Below are positions 1 to 17,235 of a DNA stretch of 17,850 nt, piece by piece. Location of the stretch: the IMG/VR virus record IMGVR_UViG_2654587568_000021, one strand, 5' to 3'. The translations under genes and the position numbers were made by a program. The DNA comes from a virus. Its lineage: Duplodnaviria; Heunggongvirae; Uroviricota; Caudoviricetes. The notes under the pieces were generated by a model. The model was not told where the DNA came from, did not search any database, and was given only the letters and a program-made list of their open reading frames with translations. The stretch's first letter is position 1. Every line of letters begins with the position of its first letter.

Positions 1-1215
1 GTGAAACTCAATGCCCGTCAAATAGACACAGCCAAGCCAAAAGAGAAGGCTTACAAGCTGGCCGATGGTGGCGGTTTGTATCTCTTGGTAAAACCTAATG
101 GAGGTAAATACTGGCGACTTAAATATCGTGTAGCTGGTAAAGAGAAGCTATTGGCACTAGGTGTGTATCCTGAGGTTACTCTAGCCGATGCTCGGGCAAA
201 ACGTGAAGATGCGAAAAGAGGTATCGCTGGTGGTATCGATCCGATGGAAGCGAAACGAGAGGAAAAGATTGCCCGGGAAACGCAGTTAAACAACACCTTC
301 AAAGATATTGCACTTGAGTGGCACAGCAGCAAATTAAAAAAATGGTCTGCTGGTTATGCTTCAGACATCCTCGAAGCCTTCAACAAAGATGTGTTCCCTT
401 ACATTGGCAAAAAACCAATCGCCGAAATCAAACCACTTGAACTTCTGAATGTGCTGCGGCGCATCGAGGGGCGAGGTGCTACAGAAAAAGCCAAAAAAGT
501 GAGGCAGCGGTGCGGGGAAGTTTTCCGCTATGCAATAGTCACTGGTCGCGCAGAGTATAACCCTGCACCAGACCTTACTAGCGCGATGCAAGGCCATGAA
601 TCTAATCATTACCCTTTCCTTACAGCCAAAGAATTACCTGATTTTTTCAAGGCATTGTCCAGTTACTCAGGAAGCGCATTGGTTGTTATGGCGGCTCGTC
701 TACTGATTATCACCGGCTTGCGAACTGGCGAACTACGTGGCGCATTATGGGATGAAATTGATTTCAACAAGGCTATCTGGGAGATACCCGCTTCACGTAT
801 GAAAATGCGGCGGCCTCATATTGTGCCATTGTCTGAGCAGGCTCTTTCGCTTATTGGGAAGATTAGAGAAATAACAGGCAATTACCCTCTTATGTTTCCC
901 GGGCGCAATGATCCAAGGAAAACAATGAGTGAGGCCAGCATAAACCAAGTGTTTAAGCGCATTGGCTACGCTGGACGTGTAACTGGTCATGGGTTCCGGC
1001 ACACTATGAGCACGATTTTGCATGAGCAGGGCTATAACACCGCGTGGATAGAAACGCAGCTCGCTCACGTTGATAATAACTCAATTCGTGGCACATACAA
1101 CCATGCGCAATATCTGGATGGAAGGCGGGAGATGCTTCAATGGTATGCCGACTATATGGATGCGCTGGAGAAGGAGGAGAACGTTGTTCATGGTTCGTTT
1201 GGGAAACGAGCTTAA
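1..1215 (+). CDS. int: P4-type tyrosine integrase (site-specific recombinase), 404 aa; ORF opens at the window edge with GTG, so the true start may lie upstream
   Basis: Full-length ORF. N-terminus (AKPKEKAYKLADGGGLYLLVKPNGGKYWRLKYR) matches the arm-binding region I recall for P4-family integrases, and the C-terminus carries R...HxxR...Y catalytic-type residues (GHGFRHT, RGTYNH). Family assignment is from memory, not a search. Confidence 0.88.
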   Translation: MKLNARQIDTAKPKEKAYKLADGGGLYLLVKPNGGKYWRLKYRVAGKEKLLALGVYPEVTLADARAKREDAKRGIAGGIDPMEAKREEKIARETQLNNTFKDIALEWHSSKLKKWSAGYASDILEAFNKDVFPYIGKKPIAEIKPLELLNVLRRIEGRGATEKAKKVRQRCGEVFRYAIVTGRAEYNPAPDLTSAMQGHESNHYPFLTAKELPDFFKALSSYSGSALVVMAARLLIITGLRTGELRGALWDEIDFNKAIWEIPASRMKMRRPHIVPLSEQALSLIGKIREITGNYPLMFPGRNDPRKTMSEASINQVFKRIGYAGRVTGHGFRHTMSTILHEQGYNTAWIETQLAHVDNNSIRGTYNHAQYLDGRREMLQWYADYMDALEKEENVVHGSFGKRA

Positions 1216-2436: not shown

Positions 2437-2634
2437 ATGTCTCAATCATTTATTCGTCTTTCTGAGGTTCAACGCCGTACTGGTTACAGCAAAGCGTGGA
2501 TTTATCGGCTCATCAAAGAACAGCGATTCCCTCAATCTGTAAAGATTGGAAGCCGATCAATTGCGTTTATTGAAAGTGAAATTGAAGAATGGATTAATCA
2601 GCGCATCGCTGAGTCGCGTGGCGAGGTAGCGTAA
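2437..2634 (+). CDS. alpA: AlpA-family transcriptional regulator / excisionase-like HTH protein, 65 aa
   Basis: AGGAG RBS (taggagtaaacATG). Sequence RLSEVQRRTGYSKAWIYRLIKEQRFPQSVKIGSRSIAF is the characteristic AlpA/MerR-like HTH as I recall it. Stop overlaps the next start (TAATG). Confidence 0.88.
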   Translation: MSQSFIRLSEVQRRTGYSKAWIYRLIKEQRFPQSVKIGSRSIAFIESEIEEWINQRIAESRGEVA

Positions 2635-3077: not shown

Positions 3078-3911
3078 ATGAACATCGAAAAAAGCAGATT
3101 AATTTCTGAGGCCGCCCCTCATCTGAACGCCTCTCTGGGCACAATTAACGGTAATGAATTTGCCGCAATTGTCCCAGTTATTCCTGGTCATATAGGTGGG
3201 CGTGAAACCAATATTGTTAGCGCAAAAGCGTTACACAAAGCGTTGGGCGTGGGAAAAGACTTCTCTACATGGATCACTGATCGCATCTCTGAATATGACT
3301 TCACCATTGGGCACGATTACTCAGTCCATAAAACAATTTCCCCAAATTTGGGGAAAAGCCCGAATGGCGCGGCTTACAGCAAGATTAAGCAGTCTGGCAG
3401 ACCCGGCAAAGACTATCTGTTAAGTGTCGGAATGGCGAAAGAACTGGCAATGATCGAACGCAATGATCAGGGTCGCGCTATCCGCCGTTATTTCATCCAG
3501 TGCGAGGAAGAATTACAGCGTAGCGCGCCTGAAATCGCCGCCCGCTATCGTCGCCAGCTAAAAGCCCGTATCAGTGCCGCAAACAACTTTAAGCCAATGT
3601 GCGATGCGCTGAATATGGCCCGTGCCGAGATGGGGAAAACGACGCAGCAACACCACTACACAAACGAGAGCAATATGATTTCTCGTATCGTTCTTGGTGG
3701 GATAACTGCTAAGCAGTGGGCGCGGATAAATGGCTATTCTGGCGAACCTCGCGACCATATGAACGCAGAACAGCTTGAGCACCTCTCATATCTCGAAAGC
3801 ACCAATATCACGTTAATTGATATGGGCATGGAATATGAGCAGCGCAAAGGAGAACTCACCCGCCTGTCGCAACGCTGGCTCGCCAAGCGTCTGGAGGCGG
3901 TCAATGTCTAA
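3078..3911 (+). CDS. Phage antirepressor-like protein (AntA/Rha/KilA-C type), 277 aa
   Basis: GGAG RBS. The central segment DYLLSVGMAKELAMIERNDQGRAIRRYFIQCEEEL resembles the conserved core of AntA/KilA-C antirepressor domains as I recall them. Confidence 0.65.
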   Translation: MNIEKSRLISEAAPHLNASLGTINGNEFAAIVPVIPGHIGGRETNIVSAKALHKALGVGKDFSTWITDRISEYDFTIGHDYSVHKTISPNLGKSPNGAAYSKIKQSGRPGKDYLLSVGMAKELAMIERNDQGRAIRRYFIQCEEELQRSAPEIAARYRRQLKARISAANNFKPMCDALNMARAEMGKTTQQHHYTNESNMISRIVLGGITAKQWARINGYSGEPRDHMNAEQLEHLSYLESTNITLIDMGMEYEQRKGELTRLSQRWLAKRLEAVNV

Positions 3912-4086: not shown

Positions 4087-4741
4087 CCGTCCAGAAGAAG
4101 ATATTTTCACTGGCTGGTATGTCACCAAAATCCAGCAATATGACAGCAAAGTCTGGCATTAATACAGCAGATACAAGCAAAGTTTATCATTTTCTGGTGG
4201 TAGGAGCGGATGCCTTAACTATGTCAGAAATTACGGTCGATGGTGTTAGCGTTGAGAAGGTCAGCGGCTGCGCCAGAGAATTTCTGGTCGTAGATGGCTT
4301 TCTCTGCTCGCGTAGTGACTCCACAAAAACCTTCGTCCATACGCGCGACGTTAACGAAATGAGCGCGATGTATTGTGCATCTGGTGCTTCCAATACTGAG
4401 TTTTCGGAGTCCATAAAAAAGAGCTTGCCGTTATGCGGCAACACGGTTTATGGTTATAAGGCACCTCATAAAACGGGTGCCGGGATTGGCGTCCTGAAAA
4501 TTCTGAAGGCGACATATGACGCGCCGAGCGTCTTTTTTTATGTCGTAGGTCTGACTCACCCATTTTTTGGGCGTTGGTGTATAATCCAGCGCCTTTGTCA
4601 ATCAATGGTGGCTCAGGCGGGGGCTTCTTCGGAAGCGCCGGTATCCTTCAGAGCCGGTTACGCCAACCCTGTCTGGGCTACCACCAGCGAAATTGGCGTT
4701 TCCGGTGGTAGCGTAACCTGCTATCTGAAGGAGGCTGCCAC
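4080..4741 (+). CDS. Uncertain ORF: frame stays open from an ATG at 4080 (overlapping the upstream stop) through to 5147, crossing a terminator-like hairpin, a promoter and the Icd-like gene; the part shown here may be a real gene, a fused or frameshifted remnant, or non-coding
   Basis: ATGCTAA start/stop overlap at 4080-4086 suggests coupling. An open frame of about 220 codons before the Icd-like start is unlikely by chance, but the translated composition is not convincing and regulatory signals lie inside it. Confidence 0.25.
4518..4539 (+). terminator. Candidate rho-independent terminator (GACGC-loop-GCGTC followed by T7)
   Basis: 5-bp GC-rich stem at 4518-4522 / 4528-4532, then TTTTTTT at 4533-4539. 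Confidence 0.35.
4550..4590 (+). promoter_or_regulatory. Candidate sigma70 promoter with perfect -10 TATAAT (4580-4585) preceded by TG; weak -35
   Basis: gtgTATAATcc at 4577-4587. Lies about 155 nt upstream of the Icd-like gene. Confidence 0.4.
4590..4735 (+). ncRNA. Candidate C4/IsrK-like antisense RNA leader upstream of the Icd-like gene (position-based hypothesis)
   Basis: In P1-type immunity regions a C4 RNA lies between the promoter and icd. Here a promoter-to-icd leader of about 150 nt occupies the same position. No structure or homology was verified. Confidence 0.25.
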
Positions 4742-6419: not shown

Positions 6420-9176
6420 ATGCGAAACATTGATCTTATCCGTCAGGTTATCAGTGCGTCTGAAAACAACTGGCCTCATGTGCTGGGCTGCCTGAACATA
6501 AATGTCCCTGACTCTCCGCGCCGTCATGCTCCCTGCCCTGCATGTGGGGGCAAAGATCGATTCCGGTTCGATGACAACGGGCGCGGTAGCTTCATCTGTA
6601 ATCAGTGCGGCGCTGGTGATGGGCTGGATTTAATTAAACGCGTAAATAACTGCGACACAACAGAGGCGGCGCTTCTTGCCGCTGATGTTCTGGGTATTGA
6701 TTACCGGACAACGGAAACACCAGAAGCCACCAGCCAGAAACGGGAACAACTGGAAACCGAGCGCCAGCGACGCGAACAGGAGCGCCTGAAAAGGGCAGAG
6801 AAGGACGAACAACAAAGACGGGATACGTTTTCCCGTCAGTTTGATGACATGCGCAGAAAGGCTGTAAACGGCAAATCTGATTATCTGGTTGCGAAAGGGG
6901 TAGGTGATTTTACATTCCCCGTGTTGCCCGATGGATCTCTGTTGCTGGCGCTGGTGGATAAATCCGGCGCAGTCACAGCAGCACAGACTATTACCTCACA
7001 TGGTGAAAAAAGACTCCTGACAGGTTCAGCAAAGCGAGGGGCATATCACGCCATAAACGCACCAGAAACAACACAGAGCATCTTAATCGCAGAAGGGCTG
7101 GCAACGGCATTATCTGCCCATTTAATTCGTTCAGAAGCGCTGACAGTGGCGGCGATTGATGCCGGGAACCTGTTATATGTCGCCCAGGTACTGCGGGATA
7201 AATTTCCTTCAGCACAAATCATCATTGCTGCGGATAACGACCACAGCGAAGGAAGACAAAACACGGGGAGAATAGCAGCAGAAAAAGCAGCTTTATCTGT
7301 TTCTGGATGGGTGGCATTACCCCCGACAGATCACAAAGCAGACTGGAATGATTACCACCAAAAACACGGCATTAAATGCGCCACAGAAGCGTTCAATAAG
7401 TCAATGTACCAACCACAGGGTAATGGCGTGAAACAGGAGCCACAGACCATTGAGGGAAGCGATTTTAAGGTTATGGATACCGACCCACTGAAACCAAGAA
7501 TAGAAAGCCGCGAGGATGGTATTTATTGGGTATCTCCGAGAGCTGACAGCCAGAGTGGAGAAATCATCAATAACGAAAGCTGGTTATGTTCTCCTTTAAG
7601 CGTTATCGGTACTGGCAGAGACGATAAAGACCAGTATCTCATTCTTCGCTGGCTGTCGTTTGGTTCTGAAACGCCGACAACCGCTGCCATTCCACTGGCT
7701 GATATTGGTGAACGTGAAGGATGGCGCACACTTAAAGCTGGTGGGGTAAATGTCACGACCAAAAGCAGCCTCAGAGCAATACTGGCAGACTGGCTACAAC
7801 GCAGTGGCTCTCGTGAATTGTGGCGTGTTGCTCATGCCACTGGCTGGCAATGCGGAGCGTACATCATGTCTGATGGGGAAATCATCGGAACACCTGAAAA
7901 TCCTGTGCTGTTCAGCGGGAGAAGCTCAGCCGCAGCCGGATATACCGTCTCAGGGAGCGCGAAAAGCTGGCGTGATAACGTGGCGCGTCTGGCCTTTGGT
8001 AACTATTCAATGATGACCGGGATCGGCGCAGCACTGGCAGCGCCATTGATTGGGCTGGTGGGCGCTGACGGGTTCGGTATTCATTTCTATGAGCAGTCGA
8101 GCGCAGGTAAGACCACCACGGCAAACGTGGCGAGCAGCTTATACGGCAACCCTGATTTACTGCGGCTGACGTGGTACGGAACCGCGCTGGGGCTGGCAAA
8201 TGAAGCCGCCGCCCACAATGACGGACTAATGCCGCTTGATGAAGTTGGTCAGGGCGCTGATCCTGTCAGTGTTTCACAGTCTGCCTATGCGTTATTTAAC
8301 GGTGTAGGGAAACTGCAAGGCGCTAAAGATGGTGGAAACCGGGATCTAAAACGCTGGCGTACAGTGGCAATCAGCACCGGAGAAATGGATTTAGAAACAT
8401 TTATCGCTACTTCCGGGCGAAAAACCAAAGCCGGGCAACTGGTGCGACTGCTGAATATTCCGTTGAGTAAAGCAGTACGCTTTCACGATTACCAGAACGG
8501 AAAACAGCACGCAGACGCACTGAAAGACGCTTACCAGCATCACCACGGCGCAGCCGGGCGTGAGTGGATTAAATGGCTGGCAGACCACCAGCAACAGGCT
8601 ATTAAAACTGTTCGTGACTGCGAAAGCAGATGGAGAAGCCTGATCCCATCCGATTATGGTGAGCAGGTTCACCGTGTAGCCGCGCGATTTGCCATTCTGG
8701 AGGCCGCATTGCTGTTAGGCGAGGTTGTAACAGGCTGGGATGCTCAGACATGCCGTGATGCGATACAGCACAGCTATAACGCATGGTTGCGCGAGTTCGG
8801 CACAGGTAACAAAGAGCATCAGCAGATTATTGAACAAACGGAGGCATTTCTTAATGCCTATGGGCTTAGCCGTTTTGCACCATTTCCATACAGCCCGGCA
8901 GATTTGCCCATCAAAGATTTAGCCGGATACCGTCAGCGTGGAGAACATGACGAAAGCCCAATGATTTTCTACACATTCCCGGCCACATTTGAAAAGGAGA
9001 TCGCATGTGGTTTCAACGCAAAACAGTTTGCTGAAGTGTTGAAAAAAGCCGGGATGCTAACCCCACCAAACAGCGGTCGTGGATACCAAAGAAAATCACC
9101 ACGTATTCAGGGACGACAAATAAACGTTTATGTACTCAATTACCAGCCAGGAGATTATAACTCATCCGAAGAATGA
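6420..9176 (+). CDS. P4 alpha-like DNA primase-helicase, 918 aa: N-terminal zinc ribbon, Toprim domain, C-terminal P-loop NTPase
   Basis: CPACGG...CNQCG zinc-binding motif. Toprim signatures IAEG and DNDH. Walker A SSAGKTTT and Walker B-like LMPLDEVGQG. Confidence 0.9.
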   Translation: MRNIDLIRQVISASENNWPHVLGCLNINVPDSPRRHAPCPACGGKDRFRFDDNGRGSFICNQCGAGDGLDLIKRVNNCDTTEAALLAADVLGIDYRTTETPEATSQKREQLETERQRREQERLKRAEKDEQQRRDTFSRQFDDMRRKAVNGKSDYLVAKGVGDFTFPVLPDGSLLLALVDKSGAVTAAQTITSHGEKRLLTGSAKRGAYHAINAPETTQSILIAEGLATALSAHLIRSEALTVAAIDAGNLLYVAQVLRDKFPSAQIIIAADNDHSEGRQNTGRIAAEKAALSVSGWVALPPTDHKADWNDYHQKHGIKCATEAFNKSMYQPQGNGVKQEPQTIEGSDFKVMDTDPLKPRIESREDGIYWVSPRADSQSGEIINNESWLCSPLSVIGTGRDDKDQYLILRWLSFGSETPTTAAIPLADIGEREGWRTLKAGGVNVTTKSSLRAILADWLQRSGSRELWRVAHATGWQCGAYIMSDGEIIGTPENPVLFSGRSSAAAGYTVSGSAKSWRDNVARLAFGNYSMMTGIGAALAAPLIGLVGADGFGIHFYEQSSAGKTTTANVASSLYGNPDLLRLTWYGTALGLANEAAAHNDGLMPLDEVGQGADPVSVSQSAYALFNGVGKLQGAKDGGNRDLKRWRTVAISTGEMDLETFIATSGRKTKAGQLVRLLNIPLSKAVRFHDYQNGKQHADALKDAYQHHHGAAGREWIKWLADHQQQAIKTVRDCESRWRSLIPSDYGEQVHRVAARFAILEAALLLGEVVTGWDAQTCRDAIQHSYNAWLREFGTGNKEHQQIIEQTEAFLNAYGLSRFAPFPYSPADLPIKDLAGYRQRGEHDESPMIFYTFPATFEKEIACGFNAKQFAEVLKKAGMLTPPNSGRGYQRKSPRIQGRQINVYVLNYQPGDYNSSEE

Positions 9177-9201
9177 GCTTCTTCATGTGCGTAGAAAAGG
9201 T

Positions 9202-9313
9202 GTTGGTTCAGTTGGTTCAGTTGGTTAAATTTGTAAAGAGTGTTGTTTTATAAGGATTTTATTCTTTTTATTGAACCAACACCGAACCAACAACACGGTA
9301 TTTTGAACCAACA
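9202..9313. repeat. Iteron cluster, candidate replication origin: three tandem GTTGGTTCA repeats, an AT-rich spacer, then three inverted TGAACCAAC copies
   Basis: Direct copies at 9202-9210, 9211-9219 and 9220-9228 (third degenerate). Inverted copies at 9272-9280, 9283-9291 and 9305-9313. Begins 26 bp after the primase stop. Confidence 0.6.
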
Positions 9314-9760: not shown

Positions 9761-9934
9761 ATGGCTATTTCAGTAAAGCCAGTATTGATAAGTGAGAAGC
9801 AAATGGAAGCGATAAAGAAAATTCAGGAGGAGCAGCGTAAAAAATCAGAGGTAGGAGTTGCGCCAACGATCCACGAAATTGCTCGGGGATTAATGGATAA
9901 GGCGCTGGCTTACACTTTAACTGGACGTGGGTAA
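9761..9934 (+). CDS. Small hypothetical protein, 57 aa, first gene of the cargo operon (below the 60-aa ORF-track cutoff)
   Basis: RBS AGGGGG at 9751-9756, ATG at 9761, TAA at 9932-9934; translated by hand as MAISVKPVLISEKQMEAIKKIQEEQRKKSEVGVAPTIHEIARGLMDKALAYTLTGRG. Confidence 0.5.
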   Translation: MAISVKPVLISEKQMEAIKKIQEEQRKKSEVGVAPTIHEIARGLMDKALAYTLTGRG

Positions 9935-9938
9935 ATCA

Positions 9939-11405
9939 ATGGCTACGTGGCAACAGGGTATTAATTCTGGTGGTTTTCTGGCTGGCATTGGTGCGCAAAA
10001 CGAGAATGCGCCAAAGGCAAGCGACATTAACGCAACGCTTGGTCTGATCCGCGAAAACAATGAACTGGCTCGCTCAGGTGCAAATAACGTTGCTCTGACA
10101 GGTCTTCGTGGTCTGGCTGGCGTTGCTGATATTTATAAGCAGCAGCAACAGCAGGAGCGTAAAGCGGCATTCCAGAAAGGTTATGCAGATGCTTATGCGT
10201 CCGGTGACAGGGAGCAGATGCGTAATCTTATTACAGCATTCCCAGAAGAGTTTGAGGAAGTCCGTAAAGGGATGAGTTATGTCGATGATGCTCAAAGGGA
10301 TGATTATGGCAATCTGGCGCTCAAAGCACAGGTAGCCTCATCGCTTGGTCAGGGCGCATTTGGCAGGTTCATGATGGATAATGAGCAGGAGATGCGTCGT
10401 TTAGGTATCCCTCCAGAAACTATTGCTGAAATGCAGGTTAATGACCCGCAGGGCTTCCAGCATTTCGCAGGTAATCTGGCGCTGTTTTCTCTCGGTCATG
10501 AGAAGTATTTCGATATCAAAGATCAAATGGAAGGTCGGGATATTGAGCGTGGCAAGTTGGCAGAGACAATCCGCAGCAATCAGGCTGGCGAAGCACTTCA
10601 GGCGAGAGGGCAGGATATTAGCCGAGCAAATGCGTTAACGTCAGCATATGCACCAACAGCAGCAATGCAGAATTACAATCAGTACGCGCAAATGTTAAAG
10701 GCGGATCCAGAGGGGGCGGCGGCATTTGCGGCAGCGGCTGGAATTAATACAAACGCCAAAAAATTAATGAGTGTTAGAGAAAACGATGATGGCACTGTCA
10801 CAAAATACTACACAGACGGAAGTGAAGAGCAGGGAAAACTAAACCAGCCAATATCTGGAGATGGGTTTCGTCCAATAGCTTTGCCAACAGCCCAAAAGAT
10901 CATGGAAAAGTCGCCAGAAGGGGCTAAAAAAGCTGCTGGATTTGCATACAGGGTTAGGGATGCTCTTGATTCAATAGATACACTGAAAGACCAGCTTAGC
11001 CCACAGCGAGTGGCGATCATTAATAATGCTTTGGGTAATGGGACGCTGGCTAACTTAACGCTCAGCCCAGCAGAGCAGCAATACGTTGTTAATGCTAATG
11101 ACGCAATAATGGCAATACTCCGTCAGGAAACAGGGGCATCTATCCTACCAGCTGAAATGTCCAAATATTATCAAATGTATTTCCCTCAGCCTGGTGATTC
11201 CACAAAAACCATTGATACCAAGCGCCGGAAGATGGAAAACCAGTTCAATTCGCTGAAAGCTGCTTCTGGTCGAACTTATGATGCTTTGCGGGTTATTTCA
11301 GCAGTTGACAGAGGAACTGCTTCTTCGTCGCAGACATTGCCGCAATCTGAGCAGGTATCACAGCCAGCAGCCAGCAGTAACTTTTCTTCACTATGGGGTG
11401 ATTAA
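9939..11405 (+). CDS. Large hypothetical protein, about 488 aa, Ala/Gln/Gly-rich; no family recognised. An alternative GTG start at 9927 gives the 492-aa ORF-track version
   Basis: Long intact ORF with an ATG 4 nt after the upstream stop. Stop overlaps the next start (TAATG). Confidence 0.8.
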   Translation: MATWQQGINSGGFLAGIGAQNENAPKASDINATLGLIRENNELARSGANNVALTGLRGLAGVADIYKQQQQQERKAAFQKGYADAYASGDREQMRNLITAFPEEFEEVRKGMSYVDDAQRDDYGNLALKAQVASSLGQGAFGRFMMDNEQEMRRLGIPPETIAEMQVNDPQGFQHFAGNLALFSLGHEKYFDIKDQMEGRDIERGKLAETIRSNQAGEALQARGQDISRANALTSAYAPTAAMQNYNQYAQMLKADPEGAAAFAAAAGINTNAKKLMSVRENDDGTVTKYYTDGSEEQGKLNQPISGDGFRPIALPTAQKIMEKSPEGAKKAAGFAYRVRDALDSIDTLKDQLSPQRVAIINNALGNGTLANLTLSPAEQQYVVNANDAIMAILRQETGASILPAEMSKYYQMYFPQPGDSTKTIDTKRRKMENQFNSLKAASGRTYDALRVISAVDRGTASSSQTLPQSEQVSQPAASSNFSSLWGD

Positions 11406-13510
11406 TGGCTAAAGCATGGAAAGATGTTATCGCCTCTCCACAGTATCAGGCGTTAGCACCAGAACAAAAAGCGCAGGCTCAGGAGCAATACTTCAATGAA
11501 GTCGTGGCCCCGCAAGCCGGAGAAAGTGTAGAGCAGGCTAAGCAGGCTTTTTATGCTGCCTATCCACTACCATCAACGAATGAAATAGACCGATCCCAAT
11601 CAGCAACTCAAAATATTCAACATACATCATCTGATAATTCTCTTGCGTCAGGGTATGCAAAGTTAGCTACTCAGCAAAGAGAGGGGCTTGAGCGTTCAGC
11701 AGAACAGGGAGCCAGTCTTGGGGCTGCGATGCGCGATGCTATAACAGGCGAAAGCCGAATGACTCCAGAGATGGAGAGACTGCAAAATGTCGCCTCTGCC
11801 CCAGAATTGAACTCACTAAGCATGGATGCCCTAAAGGCTGGATGGTCTCAACTTTTCGGCTCTGACGCGTCTCAGGAAAAGATTCTTCAGGGAATGGGGG
11901 CGACATTAAGGCAGGATGAGAAGGGGAATACTATCGTTTCTCTGCCATCAGGTGATTATGCCCTGAACAAGCCGGGTTTATCACCGCAAGACCTGACCTC
12001 GTTTCTTGCTAATGCGTTGGCGTTTACACCAGCGGGCAGGGCTGGAACGGTGCTTGGTGCCATAGGAAAATCAGCAGCTACAGATTTAGCACTACAGGGA
12101 GCCACCAGCCTTGCTGGTGGAGAAGATATTGATCCGTTACAAACGGTAATTTCTGCTGGCATTGGTGGTATTGGTAAGGGGCTGGAAAATACAGCGAGTG
12201 CGGTTTCGAGGGCTGTTCGTGGTGATATGTCGCCTGAAGCAAAGGCTGCTGTCGACTTTGCATCGGAAAGAAATCTGCCGTTAATGACCAGTGACATGCT
12301 GAAAGATAAAACCTTTATGCAGAGTCAGGCTCAGACATTAGGCGAAAGAGTTCCTTTTTTTGGAACCGGTAAGAATCGGCTGAATCAACAACAAGCACGA
12401 GAAAATTTAGTCAGAACATTTAGCGATGGTCTGGGTGGCATTTCTGATAAACAGCTTTATGAATCTGCGACTAAAGGGCAACAAAAATTCATTGAGGCAG
12501 CAGGAAAGCGATATAACCGCATAATTGACGCTATGGGGGATACCCCTGTCGATCTCTCAAACACGGTAAAAGCTATCGACAATCAGATTGCCGTGTTAAG
12601 CCGCCCGGGCAAATCTCAGGATAGAGCCGCGGTAAAAGTCTTGCAGCAATTTAAAGACGATATCACCAGCGGACCAAATGACCTGCGTCTGGCGAGGGAA
12701 AACAGAACCGATCTTCGAAAGCGATTTATGGCGTCATCTGACACTGTTGATAAAGATACGCTCCAGAAAGCCAGCGATATTATCTACAAGGCATATACGG
12801 CGGATATGAAAAAAGCCGTAGCCAAAAATCTTGGAGCAGACGAAGCCATTAATATGGCAAGGGTTGATCGCTCATGGTCTAAATTCAATGACATGATGGG
12901 AAGAACGCGCGTTCAAAAGGCAATAGCCAGCGGCAAGGCCACGCCTGAGGATGTAACAAAACTCGTTTTTAGCCAAAGCCCATCAGAACGTTCTCAGCTT
13001 TACAGGCTTCTGGATGACAATGGTAGGCAAAACGCACGAGCAGCCATAGTTCAGAATGCTGTAGATAAGGCGACTGATCCGTCTGGAAATATCAGTGTTG
13101 AGAAGTTTATTAATGCGTTACACCGGAACAGGAAGCAATCAGCAACTTTCTTTAAAGGCGTACATGGAAAGGAACTGGACGGCGTTATTAAATACCTCAA
13201 CGATACAAGACACGCGGCAAAAGCGAACGTTCAAAACTTAAATGGTCAGCAGCTTTATGGATTGTTAGTTGGTGGTGGCATCATAAACGCAGCAGTATTA
13301 GCGGGGATGCTAAAAACGGCTGCGTTTGTTGTTCCTGCTGCTGGTGCCGTAGGCGGAGCAGCGAAGGCATACGAAAGCCCTGTTATACGAAATGCCTTGT
13401 TACGTCTGGCAAATACGCCAAAAGGTAGCACAGCATATGACAGAGCGATCAGTACGGTCACACAATCGCTCACCAGAGTCGCACAGGCATCACAAAAAGA
13501 AGCTCAATAA
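11405..13510 (+). CDS. Large hypothetical protein, 701 aa, with a C-terminal Gly/Ala-rich hydrophobic segment (LYGLLVGGGIINAAVLAGMLKTAAFVVPAAGAVGGAA); function unknown
   Basis: Long intact ORF coupled to the upstream gene and followed by a terminator hairpin. No enzymatic motif recognised. Confidence 0.85.
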   Translation: MAKAWKDVIASPQYQALAPEQKAQAQEQYFNEVVAPQAGESVEQAKQAFYAAYPLPSTNEIDRSQSATQNIQHTSSDNSLASGYAKLATQQREGLERSAEQGASLGAAMRDAITGESRMTPEMERLQNVASAPELNSLSMDALKAGWSQLFGSDASQEKILQGMGATLRQDEKGNTIVSLPSGDYALNKPGLSPQDLTSFLANALAFTPAGRAGTVLGAIGKSAATDLALQGATSLAGGEDIDPLQTVISAGIGGIGKGLENTASAVSRAVRGDMSPEAKAAVDFASERNLPLMTSDMLKDKTFMQSQAQTLGERVPFFGTGKNRLNQQQARENLVRTFSDGLGGISDKQLYESATKGQQKFIEAAGKRYNRIIDAMGDTPVDLSNTVKAIDNQIAVLSRPGKSQDRAAVKVLQQFKDDITSGPNDLRLARENRTDLRKRFMASSDTVDKDTLQKASDIIYKAYTADMKKAVAKNLGADEAINMARVDRSWSKFNDMMGRTRVQKAIASGKATPEDVTKLVFSQSPSERSQLYRLLDDNGRQNARAAIVQNAVDKATDPSGNISVEKFINALHRNRKQSATFFKGVHGKELDGVIKYLNDTRHAAKANVQNLNGQQLYGLLVGGGIINAAVLAGMLKTAAFVVPAAGAVGGAAKAYESPVIRNALLRLANTPKGSTAYDRAISTVTQSLTRVAQASQKEAQ

Positions 13511-13514
13511 CTGG

Positions 13515-13537
13515 TTAGCCATGGATGGCTAATTTTT
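13515..13537 (+). terminator. Rho-independent terminator of the cargo operon
   Basis: Stem TTAGCCA / TGGCTAA with loop TGGA, then TTTTT. The stop codon of the convergent - strand gene (13529-13531) lies inside the 3' arm. Confidence 0.5.
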
Positions 13538-13948
13538 GTTCTTTGCTCTCATCCATAGGTAAAGAAGGGAAAGAACAAGGCAAAAAACAGAGAATAGATA
13601 ACCTACCTCATATGGTGCGCCAAAAAAATTAGCTATTGATACGGGCAAAAAAGCTGAGGCGATCAAAATTGAAAGGCAAAAAATAAGCCCAGTAATATAG
13701 TTTATTAAATTCTTAAATGAGAAACGTTTTGCTTGATTTACGGTCTTAACGAACGATCGCTTAACGACGGATAAAAGCAAATAGATGGCGACAGTTGCTA
13801 ATGCCCCTTTCCACCAGTCTGGATATAGTTTTGCGACAATCAGACCAAGGAAAACCATGATGACAGCCTGAGCATTCACACCAACCCTCCCTTTAGCTTT
13901 GTTTAGAATGGCAATCATCATATATCCAAGACATGGCATTTGGTACAT
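13529..13948 (-). CDS. Small integral membrane protein, 139 aa, about 4 predicted TM helices, AT-rich, convergent with the 701-aa gene
   Basis: Four hydrophobic stretches of 15-25 residues read by eye. One 60-nt sample (13621-13680) is about 37% GC, below the roughly 50% flank. No clear SD, so the start codon is uncertain. Confidence 0.6.
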   Translation of the reverse strand: MYQMPCLGYMMIAILNKAKGRVGVNAQAVIMVFLGLIVAKLYPDWWKGALATVAIYLLLSVVKRSFVKTVNQAKRFSFKNLINYITGLIFCLSILIASAFLPVSIANFFGAPYEVGYLFSVFCLVLSLLYLWMRAKNKN

Positions 13949-13994
13949 AGCTTGGGTCGGGATTTCAAATCCGATCCCCGTTGATGGGGCCGTT

Positions 13995-14376
13995 ACAGTA
14001 CGCGCATATCCGCTTTATGTGAAACAGGAAGATTTTTCTGATATCACTGCCACAGCAAAACACCAATTTCGTGACCAGTACGCGCGCGAGGGGTATCAGT
14101 TGCAAAATTTTTTGCAACTGCGTCCGACCAGTACGCACACGATGGCGGGGGATACCATGAAACTGTTCTCTACACGAGACAGAGTGGTGGTGATGTGTTG
14201 ATTATCGGCGTATATGCGCACAGGACGCGCTATGACGATGTTTTATGCGGGTACACCAATCACATGTATCTGATGTGATAAATCGCGTTACATGACCTCT
14301 CTGTTGTGCTGGTGGTTATCACGACGTTCTGAATCTGGCCTTTGCCTGGTATTTTGCGACAAGTACGCGCGCGTAG
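13995..14376. repeat. Four direct copies of a (G)ACCAGTACGCRCRCG-like motif plus an 11-bp inverted repeat with 2-bp spacer (14097-14120) in a non-coding region
   Basis: Copies at 13995-14006, 14073-14090, 14126-14140 and 14358-14376. Palindrome CAGTTGCAAAA-tt-TTTTGCAACTG. Confidence 0.4.
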
Positions 14377-14921
14377 CATCGAAATAATCGGATGGCGTAT
14401 GCTGCTGGTAATATGAAGACCGATAGCATTAACCGTAAGGAGAAAGACTTCTCGATAACGGCAAGATCGCGGCAAGGGGGCTGAATTGCGAGGCGAGATT
14501 AAGCAACTGTCTTGAACGTAAAAATCATGGAGCAACATGATGGTACGATTCATTCCATTCTTCGTTCTTTCTGAGTATTGCGTTCAGGCTTAGTCAAAAT
14601 TAGTGTTGCGAGCGGACCTATTAGTAATTGTTAGTGCGATGCGCCTGTTATGGATTGTTATGGTTGTGGCAGGCCTGATTAATATCCAGTATGACCACCA
14701 GCTATGAGAGGCCACCTCAGTGGTTCGCAGTTGCAGGTTTGCACTCAGGTTCGCAGGGTTTTGGCTACTTTCACGTGCGAACCTGCAGAATTGCAAAGGA
14801 CAACTAAGTCCTCTGGCCAACTCCCGGTTTATGAGCGACACAGTCCGCCTGGCGCATCGTTTTCGTCGAGTGCGCCCATCAGCTTGTCCATGGACTATCC
14901 ACCACTCGATATTAAAGCTAA

Positions 14922-15107
14922 TCATTGGTTGCCAGCCCGCGAATCAAGTTTGTTCTGGATCCAAGCTTCAACCTCCTCAAGCGACCATCTAGCTGATCTA
15001 CCAATTTTAACTGGCTGTGGAAACGTGCCCGTCTTAACCCATGAGTAGATTGCCGTTTTCTTGAAGCCCGTTCTGAGCATAACTTCGCTTAATTTGATAA
15101 GGCGCAT
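14922..15107 (-). CDS. alpA: Second AlpA-family regulator, 61 aa, on the - strand
   Basis: MRLIKLSEVMLRTGFKKTAIYSWVKTGTFPQPVKIGRSARWSLEEVEAWI is a typical AlpA HTH as I recall it. AGGAG RBS on the - strand upstream of the ATG. Confidence 0.85.
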   Translation of the reverse strand: MRLIKLSEVMLRTGFKKTAIYSWVKTGTFPQPVKIGRSARWSLEEVEAWIQNKLDSRAGNQ

Positions 15108-15155
15108 AGAGGCTCCTCTGCTTTAGATTAAGCATAGTGACAATCTGGCTTTGGC

Positions 15156-15190
15156 GGTATCCAAAAGCGAGGTATCCATGTTGGTATCCA
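15156..15190. promoter_or_regulatory. Three direct GGTATCCA repeats in the divergent intergenic region between alpA(-) and the 63-aa gene(+)
   Basis: Copies at 15156-15163, 15171-15178 and 15183-15190. A perfect TATAAT at 15328-15333 precedes the + strand small gene. Confidence 0.3.
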
Positions 15191-15358
15191 CCAAAACGCT
15201 GTTTACCAAAAAAGTTACCACCGGAACAGGACATTTTGAGCTGTAACTTAACACATAGCATATGGAGTTCACGCATAGACTTCACGCACAACGGCTCCGG
15301 CCAGTGAAGAATCACCCTGGCTGGCAATATAATGCCGATCACCATCAGAGGGGGATCC

Positions 15359-15550
15359 ATGACACCACGAGAAATCGAGCTGCTGACCATTGCCAAGCTG
15401 GAGCATGACGGCCACCAGCTCAGCCCGGCAGAACTGCGGGAATTAAGGCGCCAGCTGGCAGAGGGCCCTGTAATAGCCAGGCGGTACCGCGAAATGATGA
15501 CCAGCCCCGCATATCGCTGGAGCAAACCAGCGCCGCTCCGTGCGCGGTGA
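15359..15550 (+). CDS. Small hypothetical protein, 63 aa (MTPREIELLTIAKLEHDGHQLSPAELRELRRQLAEG...)
   Basis: GAGGGGG RBS then ATG at 15359. An alternative upstream ATG at 15332 has no RBS. Confidence 0.45.
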   Translation: MTPREIELLTIAKLEHDGHQLSPAELRELRRQLAEGPVIARRYREMMTSPAYRWSKPAPLRAR

Positions 15551-15624
15551 GCAGCACCTAACCAGCACTAGACAAGCCCTGTGCTGGTGGATGTCCCTCA
15601 TAATTAGCGGTTTTTAAACAGCGT

Positions 15625-15745
15625 GTTGGTTCACGGCCTCTTTTTGTTGGTTCAAAAATGGGGTGTGTTGGTTCACTTTTTGCGAATAATTCTTTTAAAA
15701 ACAATACTCTTTACAAATTGAACCAACTGAACCAACTGAACCAAC
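15625..15745. repeat. Second iteron cluster, the reverse-complement copy of 9202-9313: three spaced GTTGGTTCA, an AT-rich spacer, then three tandem TGAACCAAC
   Basis: Direct copies at 15625-15633, 15646-15654 and 15667-15675. Tandem inverted copies at 15719-15727, 15728-15736 and 15737-15745. The reverse complement of 15711-15750 is near-identical to 9193-9232. Confidence 0.6.
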
Positions 15746-15781
15746 ACCTTTTTGCTTATCTATATAGTCTGAGAGGCAGAA

Positions 15782-16069
15782 ATGATAAGGGACAGGAAAG
15801 CTGAAGATCTGGAGTCAAAAGGGCTATACCGGAGAGCTGCCGCACGATGGGCAGAAATCATGATGCTGGCAGATGGCGATAAAGAACGTGAACATGCAGC
15901 AAACAGACGCTCTGAATGTATCCGTAAGGCGGCACGCCAACCAGCAACTACAGACAGATTCGGAGATTTAAGACAGGCAGTTAAGCGAACTCATTCGGCT
16001 CTTGGTATGGATGAGGAAGCGAGAGGGTACTTCAGGCGTTATCGCGATAAAGATTGCCAGAGACAGTAA
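15782..16069 (+). CDS. PerC-family transcriptional regulator-like protein, 95 aa
   Basis: GAGAGG RBS. The segment LESKGLYRRAAARWAEIM resembles the conserved PerC/Pch motif as I recall it. Confidence 0.6.
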   Translation: MIRDRKAEDLESKGLYRRAAARWAEIMMLADGDKEREHAANRRSECIRKAARQPATTDRFGDLRQAVKRTHSALGMDEEARGYFRRYRDKDCQRQ

Positions 16070-16206
16070 TGCTCTCTCTGTTTTGGCAAATTACCCCTCA
16101 CTTTGAAGGGATCGGAGCTATAAAAATGGTGTTATCCGGCTTCCTCAAATTGAGGTTTCCGAAAATATCAGCGGGTTAGCGATTAATCTGGCGAGTAATT
16201 AAACTG

Positions 16207-16386
16207 CGAAAATTTCGTAGGGGGTTACGAAAATTTCGTAGGTCTACTCATGGTTTAGGCTTACTTTCCCGACATCCCCCAATGGGTGGGGGCGAAATAA
16301 TCAATGGGTTAGGCTTACCTCCCCCATTTCCTGCATTGCAGGTTTTCGAAAGAATCAATGGGTTAGGTCATCGTGCAAATTTGCAC
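16207..16386. repeat. Non-coding array of phased direct repeats and palindromes: CGAAAATTTCGTAGG x2, TCAATGGGTTAGGCTTAC-like x3 at 53-54 bp spacing, GTGCAAATTTGCAC palindrome
   Basis: Copies at 16207-16221 and 16228-16242; 16248-16264, 16301-16318 and 16354-16370. Palindromes at 16330-16342 and 16373-16386. Confidence 0.45.
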
Positions 16387-17003
16387 TCTGACAGCCAACG
16401 CAATTTCTCGTTGGCGGAAATATCAGGTATTTACTGAACGAACGGTCTACCCGCCTGTTCAACTACCAGTTGTACATGGCTGCTTTATGTGCAAATGGTG
16501 GTGAGAGAAAATTGTTTGGGGGTACTTTTGGGGGTATCTTCAAAGATGTAATTGGAAAATATCTTTATATATCAATGTATTTTTATTGTTTGTTTTGTTC
16601 CTATTATCGCACCACTTAAATCAATAAGTTACACATCATTAATACCTTCCTTATTTTTTGATTGGGACAGATTTGGGACCGATGGGTTCAGGATCGAATC
16701 TATTTACCGTGCGTGTTCGGTAAGGTGATTAGGTGCGAGGTGAGCATATCGACGAACCATTTCGAGAGTTTCCCATCCGCTCATTTTTAAGTGCAAGCAG
16801 GGAAACACCGGACTAAACCTATCAGCTGTTCGAAAATGGCAAGCGGATTAATATGCCATGGCGGCTTTGAGCCGCACGCATGGGGTGTGGCAAGCCTGAT
16901 GGATGTTGCTGTGCTTGTGGTGGCGTGTTTGCTGGTCTGGTTGTTGGTTAATCGCGAAAATCATTATGCCTGAGGAATACCACAGGACGTTCAGGTTTTG
17001 CAT

Positions 17004-17028
17004 AAAAAAGCCCACCATTAAGGTGGGC
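17004..17028 (-). terminator. Rho-independent terminator oriented for - strand transcription
   Basis: Stem GCCCACC / GGTGGGC at 17010-17028 with loop ATTAA. A6 at 17004-17009 on + is a U-run after the hairpin on the - strand. Confidence 0.4.
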
Positions 17029-17235
17029 AAAAGGAATGATTTATATTCTCTGAGAGAGACATTACATTTCTCCTTGCCACTTCTAACATAAAAATATGGA
17101 GAAATAATGGAGCTTATATTAATTGGCGATTAGGTAATCATGTGGTTATACAAAACAATACAGTTCTTTACATTTGCCTTGTTTTATGAATACTCCTAAA
17201 GAGGTGTATAACATAATGGTACAAGCAGGGTAGAT

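Follow-up and report, generated by a model that had tools for sequence, protein, structure and literature searches.

A second alpA gene, an iteron cluster and a PerC-family gene at the probable attR-proximal end of an EcCIMP1-type phage satellite

The locus described here occupies positions 14922-16069 of a 17,850-nucleotide stretch of DNA (the window; IMG/VR record IMGVR_UViG_2654587568_000021) that probably carries a phage-inducible chromosomal island (PICI) of the EcCIMP1 type. EcCIMP1 is a 19,963-bp PICI of Escherichia coli MP1 located at the tRNA-Thr between proA and yagU, with the att core TCCTATTATC, and is mobilized by the P22-like helper phage Kapi1 (Pick, Stadel and Raivio, ISME J 2025, PMC11773190). 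Islands of this type are thus a published kind of E. coli phage satellite, and their second AlpA, their PerC-like gene and the possible cross-talk have already been described and tested experimentally. From left to right, the locus comprises a second alpA gene on the reverse strand (alpA2), a repeat-bearing intergenic region, a small gene of 63 amino acids (orf63), an inverted cluster of iterons and a PerC-family gene (perC). An initial annotation had recognized each of these features, all of which were confirmed, and had regarded them as the remnant of a regulatory island apart from the first element.

The alpA2 gene (14922-15107, reverse strand) encodes a winged-helix protein of the AlpA/Xis type with 61 amino acids, of which residues 1-50 matched the Pfam family PF05930 (Phage_AlpA) with an E value of 1.9e-13 and 50.5 bits (cut-off 21). 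The position downstream of int that is canonical for the PICI master regulator, a role taken from the EcCIMP1 study (PMC11773190), is held by alpA1 (2437-2634, forward strand; PF05930 E value 8.9e-20), whereas alpA2 lies at the far end on the opposite strand. Because the two proteins are only 44% identical, alpA2 is an old and clearly different paralog and not the recent duplication artefact that the initial annotation had considered. AlpA2 is 100% identical in amino acid sequence to its ortholog in MP1, AlpA_1 (EcCIMP1_023), when read from an upstream ATG, and is 43% identical over 56 residues to the Xis protein of the helper Kapi1. Its closest solved structure is TorI (1z4h, E value 1.2e-5). 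PADLOC found generic helix-turn-helix similarity of AlpA2 to mad1 and no anti-phage system. The presence of a second AlpA at the opposite end and on the opposite strand was remarked upon as unusual in EcCIMP1, where alpA_1 is dispensable for excision and transfer of the island; its deletion aggravates the defect of a Kapi1 xis mutant, and AlpA_1 partly replaces the helper Xis (PMC11773190). Since the identical EcCIMP1 protein is dispensable for the island and a partial substitute for the helper enzyme, alpA2 is, by analogy, a TorI/Xis-type recombination directionality factor that would act in trans on the helper and not on the island.

Three direct repeats of GGTATCCA (15156-15190, with copies at 15156, 15171 and 15183) make up the repeat-bearing intergenic region and lie 50-85 bp upstream of the alpA2 start. 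The motif is present five times in the window, compared with an expectation of 0.31, and none of 200 shuffles reached five copies. The repeats are a candidate operator of a leftward alpA2 promoter. They also were considered as sites for the helper-phage Xis, an idea that was dropped since the genome of Kapi1 contains no copy of the motif.

The orf63 gene (15359-15550, forward strand) is a real gene, judging from the conservation of its product and from its pattern of substitution. A protein search detected 71 homologs, mostly of 61-63 amino acids and down to about 50% identity, with representatives in Citrobacter, Salmonella, Leclercia, Buttiauxella and Yersinia. Comparison with three distant homologs gave 32-36 differences at codon position 3 versus 10-20 at positions 1 and 2. 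The N-terminal sequence MTPREIELLTIAKLEH varies little or not at all among the homologs, and other conserved residues are dispersed further along. The AlphaFold2 model is a two-helix hairpin (helices 3-16 and 23-47) with a mean predicted local distance difference test score (pLDDT) of 80; a Foldseek comparison of this model with the PDB gave nothing below an E value of 0.4, and no family was found for orf63 in Pfam, PHROG, NCBIfam or PADLOC. In several genomes, RefSeq lists a hypothetical protein of 45 amino acids (15269-15406, reverse strand) that overlaps orf63, and this open reading frame (ORF) is probably spurious because stop codons interrupt it in Salmonella and Buttiauxella. Paralogs of orf63 (59-65% identity) are found directly downstream of perC in MP1, O111, CE0026f and EC09, followed by a gene of the pRiA4b-ORF3 family, and a homolog in Yersinia is followed by a Fic gene (the copies are at L015 9935-10120, L003 16460-16645, L008 12744-12929, L009 14257-14442 and L010 10001-10186). 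Thus, orf63 and its paralogs seem to mark the start of variable cargo, which is perC in the window. On either side of orf63 is one arm of a 16-nt inverted repeat (15190-15205 and 15615-15630), complementary at 15 of 16 positions, and the right arm overlaps the first iteron of the cluster described next; by a rough estimate the repeat is at about chance level, and nothing was built on it.

The iteron cluster (15624-15752), referred to here as origin unit B, contains six exact copies of TGAACCAAC between 15625 and 15745. Three are on the reverse strand at 15625, 15646 and 15667, with a phasing of 21 bp (15625-15675), and three are on the forward strand at 15719, 15728 and 15737, as a 9-bp tandem (15719-15745). 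The spacer between the two sets (15676-15718) has 43 bp and is 79% A+T. When one mismatch was allowed, 19 matches to TGAACCAAC were found in the window versus 4.4 expected, a number that none of 200 shuffles reached. A similar cluster, unit A (9195-9312), starts 19 bp past the stop codon of the primase gene. Its first iteron is 26 bp past that stop codon, and the iterons (9202-9312) consist of a tandem set on the reverse strand (9202-9228), an 81% A+T spacer and a phased set on the forward strand (9272-9312). None of the six 9-mers of unit B deviates from TGAACCAAC, while unit A has two imperfect copies. The two units are inverted copies of each other, A+T-rich spacer included (9195-9258 versus 15752-15688; 92% identity, E value 8e-20). 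Because the same 9-mers form a second cluster at the 3' end of the primase gene and the clusters are inverted copies, the iterons near perC appear to be half of the replication origin of the island and not part of a separate regulatory module.

The perC gene (15782-16069, forward strand) is the first gene after unit B and encodes a protein of 95 amino acids (RefSeq WP_000617436.1 in strain GF8). Residues 1-89 matched positions 1-89 of the 90 positions of the Pfam PerC profile PF06069 (E value 3.1e-32, 111.1 bits, cut-off 22.6), and the protein also matched phrog_994 (E value 7.5e-36). The homology is strong enough to place the gene in the PerC family, as the initial annotation had proposed. 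The score against the ANR family (NCBIfam NF033650) was 24.4 bits, below the cut-off of 32. The corresponding protein of EcCIMP1, EcCIMP1_025, is 50.6% identical over 85 amino acids, almost exactly so in the first 23 residues and divergent beyond them. EcCIMP1_025 represses, and does not activate, a LEE1-lux fusion from the enterocyte effacement locus (LEE) in Citrobacter rodentium (PMC11773190). The cross-talk with a chromosomal virulence locus that had been envisaged is thus documented for the sister allele, but as repression of LEE1 and not as the activation that the initial annotation associated with the family. By analogy, the window PerC is a predicted small PerC/ANR-like modulator of host transcription, and the gene may reasonably be considered a candidate for modulating virulence loci of the LEE type. 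Plasmid-borne genes of the PerC family were less than 80% and mostly less than 60% identical, except for two records at 95-99%, one of which was inspected and is a PICI circle. A scan of a collection of species genomes with the PerC protein detected merely two irrelevant Bacteroidales loci.

The non-coding stretch between perC and attR (16070-16598) contains repeats, two of CGAAAATTTCGTAGG as well as GGGGGTACTTTTGGGGGTATC, which resembles GGGGGTACTTATGGGGGTAT beside attL and int in locus L003; these are probably integrase and excisionase arm sites. The right boundary of the island is marked by the attR core itself, TCCTATTATC (16599-16608, forward strand), of which the window has a single copy, 530 bp rightward of perC. 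This sequence agrees with the 3' end of tRNA-Thr and with the att core published for EcCIMP1. Beyond it, the DNA corresponds to the region of the integrase fragment and yagU by which this locus is flanked in other strains. Positions 16609-17235 lead straight from attR into the integrase fragment (about 16629-16787) and yagU; the MarR-vat island found there in MP1 and CU39ES-1 and the yagP-paoABCD genes found there in GF8 and CE0026f are both lacking.

The left end of the island is formed by the integrase gene (1-1215, forward strand), which encodes a P4-type tyrosine recombinase and adjoins a tRNA-Thr that falls outside the window. Rightward of it are the int-alpA RNA, alpA1, an antirepressor gene, isrK and C4 RNA motifs, a TOPRIM-DUF927 primase gene and genes for homologs of the P22 ejection proteins gp20 and gp16. 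Two features listed for PICIs (Fillol-Salom et al., ISME J 2018, PMC6092414) were found. The first is an int gene (1-1215) that adjoins a specific att site and precedes alpA, here alpA1 (2437-2634), with tRNA-Thr upstream in relatives; the second is a primase/initiator gene with an origin behind it in which two sets of iterons surround an A+T-rich region. The same list includes the lack of phage structural and lysis genes; no capsid, tail or lysis gene was annotated, yet the gp20 and gp16 homologs are present. The island belongs with EcCIMP1 by synteny and near-identity, including the reverse-strand alpA_1. The blocks in common with the MP1 chromosome are 93-99% identical in DNA sequence, and positions 13954-15865 are 97% identical to a region of strain MP1 within the boundaries of EcCIMP1 that were mapped by att sequencing. 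The orthologs of the genes from alpA2 to perC fall inside the experimentally mapped excising element of 19,963 bp. The arrangement from int to perC, with alpA2 and perC at the far end, also is found at a second chromosomal site, by dinD and yicG, in E. coli strain P4. Because attR lies to the right of perC and the whole arrangement is present at another locus in strain P4, the block from alpA2 to perC is taken to form the right end of this mobile element and not a second island. Consistent with this, a circular record of 12,152 bp (NZ_CP148430.1) has the order unit A, cargo, unit B, perC and int, as in the window. That record was deposited as a non-mobilizable E. coli plasmid and contains a complete island with int, an antirepressor gene, a primase gene, unit A, 1.8 kb of cargo, unit B and perC; it presumably represents an excised or episomal PICI. 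We estimate a probability of about 0.8 that the segment from alpA2 to perC is the attR-proximal end of one intact-looking EcCIMP1-type PICI at tRNA-Thr (thrW), beside yagU. Helper-dependent excision, replication and transfer were demonstrated for EcCIMP1 with Kapi1 and are, by analogy, predicted for the present copy.

The spacing of the two origin units varies among related islands. Units A and B are contiguous (a gap of 0 kb) between the primase gene and perC or small genes in islands of E. coli EC09, Salmonella and Yersinia; in the window, GF8, strain P4, CU39ES-1, MP1 and the 12-kb circular record, the units are 1.8-8.4 kb apart, with variable genes between them. The gap is 1.8 kb in the circular copy and 6.3-8.4 kb in the window and EcCIMP1. 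The 6.3-kb block of the window contains the P22-type ejection-protein genes, a membrane-protein gene, about 1 kb of non-coding DNA, alpA2 and orf63. When IMG/VR was scanned with the triple tandem iteron, 26 contiguous arrays were found, 25 of them next to a primase C-terminus, along with 31 single units, of which 14 were at a primase C-terminus and 13 at perC. A split origin also recurs with an unrelated initiator: the island of CE0026f (L008) encodes a DUF5906-type primase and has iterons of the sequence ACCTRTACCA in two mutually inverted clusters (3396-3499 and 4506-4604) that flank two small genes. We also considered that the 6.3-kb block might be invertible by way of the inverted origin copies, which was unsupported, as the block has the same orientation relative to the primase gene and perC in about ten split loci.

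The sequence of the iterons follows that of the primase tail. The primase-helicase of the island (6420-9176, forward strand) contains a zinc ribbon, TOPRIM and DUF927, and its C-terminal tail co-varies with the iteron sequence across five specificity classes. Two Yersinia primases (L010 and L011) share 83-98% identity across the first 840 columns of the alignment and only 55%, then 42%, in the last 115, and the iterons of their islands are TGAACCAAC and ACGGGTTAT, respectively. The N-terminal half of the primase of E. coli EC09 is unrelated to that of the window and its tail is the same as in the window; the EC09 iteron is TGAACCAAC. Three further diverged tails (L080, L081 and L082) accompany the iterons TTAGCCCA, TTATCCCA and GTTGTCCCA, in arrays of the same layout. 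The covariation fits a cognate pair of initiator and origin rather than operators of AlpA2, orf63 or PerC, and suggests that the primase recognizes the TGAACCAAC iterons through its C-terminal tail. A fuller proposal is that both inverted units are active, that the gap between them is a preferred slot for accessory genes and that the primase tail (the last 40 or so residues) is a swappable determinant of specificity, with at least five classes of iterons. We regard this fuller proposal as tentative, its chances being somewhat below even. The split and inverted two-unit origin, a small detail apparently undescribed so far, and the relation between primase tail and iteron would be modest additions to what is known of these islands.

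Several observations weigh against the interpretation given here. The C-terminus of the primase has no sequence or profile similarity to the origin-binding domain of the P4 alpha protein (hhalign probability 0.1), a PDB sequence search found no solved relative of it, and the AlphaFold2 model of the tail is unreliable (pLDDT 51). The EcCIMP1 paper (PMC11773190) does not mention iterons or an origin, and the origin function of units A and B in this family is a prediction. A scan of 14800-16700 for sigma-70 consensus promoters and intrinsic terminators predicted none. For perC, the EcCIMP1_025 result is not simply transferable to the window protein because the two alleles are only about 51% identical. 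Lastly, CE0026f keeps unit B (five of the six iterons) beside perC despite having a primase of another type with its own iterons, which indicates that unit B can outlast its cognate primase as a relic.

The last observation leads to an alternative in which unit B is a dead copy, a scar left by recombination when cargo was inserted or exchanged at the origin, so that only unit A fires. The non-cognate DUF5906 primase of CE0026f favors this explanation, as does the finding that perC and the right half of unit B form a 95%-identical block that is joined to differing left flanks in many genomes. A decayed copy is harder to reconcile with the six exact 9-mers of unit B, given that it is unit A that has the imperfect ones, and with the fact that loci of E. 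coli and IMG/VR conserve its whole layout, down to the length and A+T content of the spacer. Moreover, unsplit relatives keep both units side by side, suggesting that the pair is the functional origin. We therefore consider a dead unit B unlikely, though worth keeping in mind. The iterons might instead be operators through which a neighboring regulator (AlpA2, orf63 or PerC) controls transcription of perC, with no role as an origin. Their location between divergent small regulator genes, with the tandem set ending 36 bp before the perC start codon, would suit such operators, but the same iterons are present directly after the primase gene, 5.7 kb from alpA2, are kept in islands that lack alpA2 and orf63 (L017, the circular record, and EC09) and track the primase tail across the five classes, all of which makes this explanation very improbable. 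The view of the initial annotation, that alpA2, orf63 and perC are what is left of another, independent island placed tail-to-tail with the first, could draw on the opposite strand and low identity of alpA2 and on the integrase fragment further right, but it can be dismissed almost entirely, since that fragment is beyond the attR core and the genes in question are inside the mapped excising element of MP1, accompany the remainder of the island when it moves to a different site, are present in the circular copy and are bracketed by the two halves of one origin.

Taken as part of one EcCIMP1-type island, the locus could work as follows. Induction of a P22-like helper prophage would lead alpA1 to switch on rightward transcription and excision of the island, as was shown for EcCIMP1. 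The primase-helicase would then bind the TGAACCAAC iterons, open the A+T-rich spacers of units A and B and replicate the excised circle, a step proposed from the covariation and from the known design of PICI origins. In this lineage, the two mutually inverted and normally adjacent units would have been parted by the accessory block of 6.3 kb. The alpA2 gene, transcribed leftward from the region with the three GGTATCCA repeats, would supply a TorI-type excisionase for the helper prophage. The perC gene, which in this family of islands normally comes first behind the origin, would modulate host transcription, and orf63 would be a conserved small gene that is recurrently located just upstream of variable cargo.

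Positions 9927-13510 encode the P22 gp20 and gp16 DNA-ejection homologs, which are of the same kind as Kapi1_057 and Kapi1_058; the DUF2824 and gp7-like genes located just upstream of the ejection genes in EcCIMP1 and GF8 are missing from the window copy. Directly after the gp16-like gene, on the opposite strand, is a gene (13529-13948, reverse strand) for a predicted membrane protein of 139 amino acids that belongs to no family. The sieA gene of P22 is at a similar place, and EcCIMP1 reportedly adds superinfection immunity; the membrane protein is, by analogy, a candidate superinfection-immunity gene. About 1 kb of DNA between this gene and alpA2 (13950-14921) is devoid of annotated genes in all of the E. 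coli records listed and gave no Pfam or Rfam match, and most of it is present in at least 147 genomes at 95-98% identity. Within it are three to five copies of a GACCAGTACGCGCGCG-like motif (13996-14377) and about 95 nt (14502-14596) that are about 95% identical to the end of an IS110-family insertion sequence common in E. coli genomes and look like a remnant of such an element in a non-coding stretch. Rfam matches above the gathering score were the int-alpA RNA (1276-1343, between int and the next gene) and isrK with the C4 antisense RNA (4461-4688). The latter two are immunity RNAs of the P4/P1 type and are located inside an ORF that RefSeq calls an ash family protein. The Rfam matches were confined to the left half of the island, and no RNA family was found between 13.5 and 17 kb. 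PADLOC detected no anti-phage system among the alternative cargo genes found between the units in other strains.

The results bear mainly on annotation, and apart from its correct annotation the locus matters little. The segment from alpA2 to perC should be labeled as part of an EcCIMP1-type PICI and not as a degraded regulatory island, and alpA2 should be read as a helper-directed excisionase instead of a transcription factor that acts on chromosomal genes. Should the origin assignment be true, it would fill a gap left by the EcCIMP1 paper and would locate the accessory-gene slot of this island family, and a simple rule leading from primase tail to iteron would allow these islands, which are abundant, to be grouped by replication specificity. 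Under the fuller, tentative proposal in which both units are active, the primase would work at two distant sites, much as P4 alpha does on ori and crr, and the cargo between the units, including orf63 and the helper-directed excisionase gene alpA2, would be the first DNA amplified after induction.

Compared with known systems, the island is closest to EcCIMP1. Both have the integration site at tRNA-Thr between proA and yagU, the att core and the order of int, alpA, antirepressor gene, ash/icd region, TOPRIM-DUF927 primase gene, ejection-protein genes, reverse-strand alpA_1 and PerC-family gene; AlpA_1 is identical, and the origin is likewise split in MP1. The window island differs from EcCIMP1 in its PerC allele, which diverges beyond the first 23 residues (about 51% identity overall), in lacking two small pre-primase genes as well as the DUF2824 and gp7-like genes, and in having a DUF6387 gene after int. 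It also lacks the orf63 paralog and pRiA4b-ORF3 cargo after perC and the neighboring MarR-vat island. The origin of Gram-negative PICIs, such as EcCICFT073, is immediately 3' of the primase/initiator gene (PMC6092414). Placement 3' of the primase gene is common to both, but the window has two mutually inverted predicted units, 6.3 kb apart, with accessory genes between them.

The nearest classical analog in layout, by our comparison, is phage P4, which has ori beside vis and crr after alpha. In P4 also, two clusters of type-1 iterons (ori and crr) serve one primase-helicase and are kilobases apart, crr directly follows the primase gene, and ori is in a divergent region beside an AlpA-type gene, vis. 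The isrK and C4 immunity RNA motifs and the int-alpA RNA of the island are of P4 type as well. The core set of P4-like satellites (int, alpA, alpha, epsilon, sid, delta and psu) includes three genes for capsid size and transactivation, namely sid, delta and psu. None of these three is annotated in the GF8 and MP1 copies of the island, which are 97-99% identical, and no match to them was found among the part of the window ORFs that was scanned, so that the island falls outside that group. The P4 iteron is GGTGAACA, the island primase has no detectable similarity to the C-terminal domain of P4 alpha, the helper of the island is P22-like and not P2-like, and the island int is between ori and alpA1 on the circular map.

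The perC product resembles PerC of the EAF plasmid of enteropathogenic E. coli and the Pch proteins of enterohemorrhagic E. coli prophages in its full-length match to the Pfam PerC family, and a sister island allele alters LEE1 expression as they do; however, that tested allele, EcCIMP1_025, represses LEE1 instead of activating it. Similarity to the ANR family is weak, with a score under the cut-off. The excisionase TorI of the KplE1 type (PDB 1Z4H) is identical to Kapi1 Xis, and AlpA2 is a relative of both. AlpA2 differs from them in being encoded by a satellite and not on the phage that it would serve, and its EcCIMP1 counterpart is unneeded for the excision of its own element.

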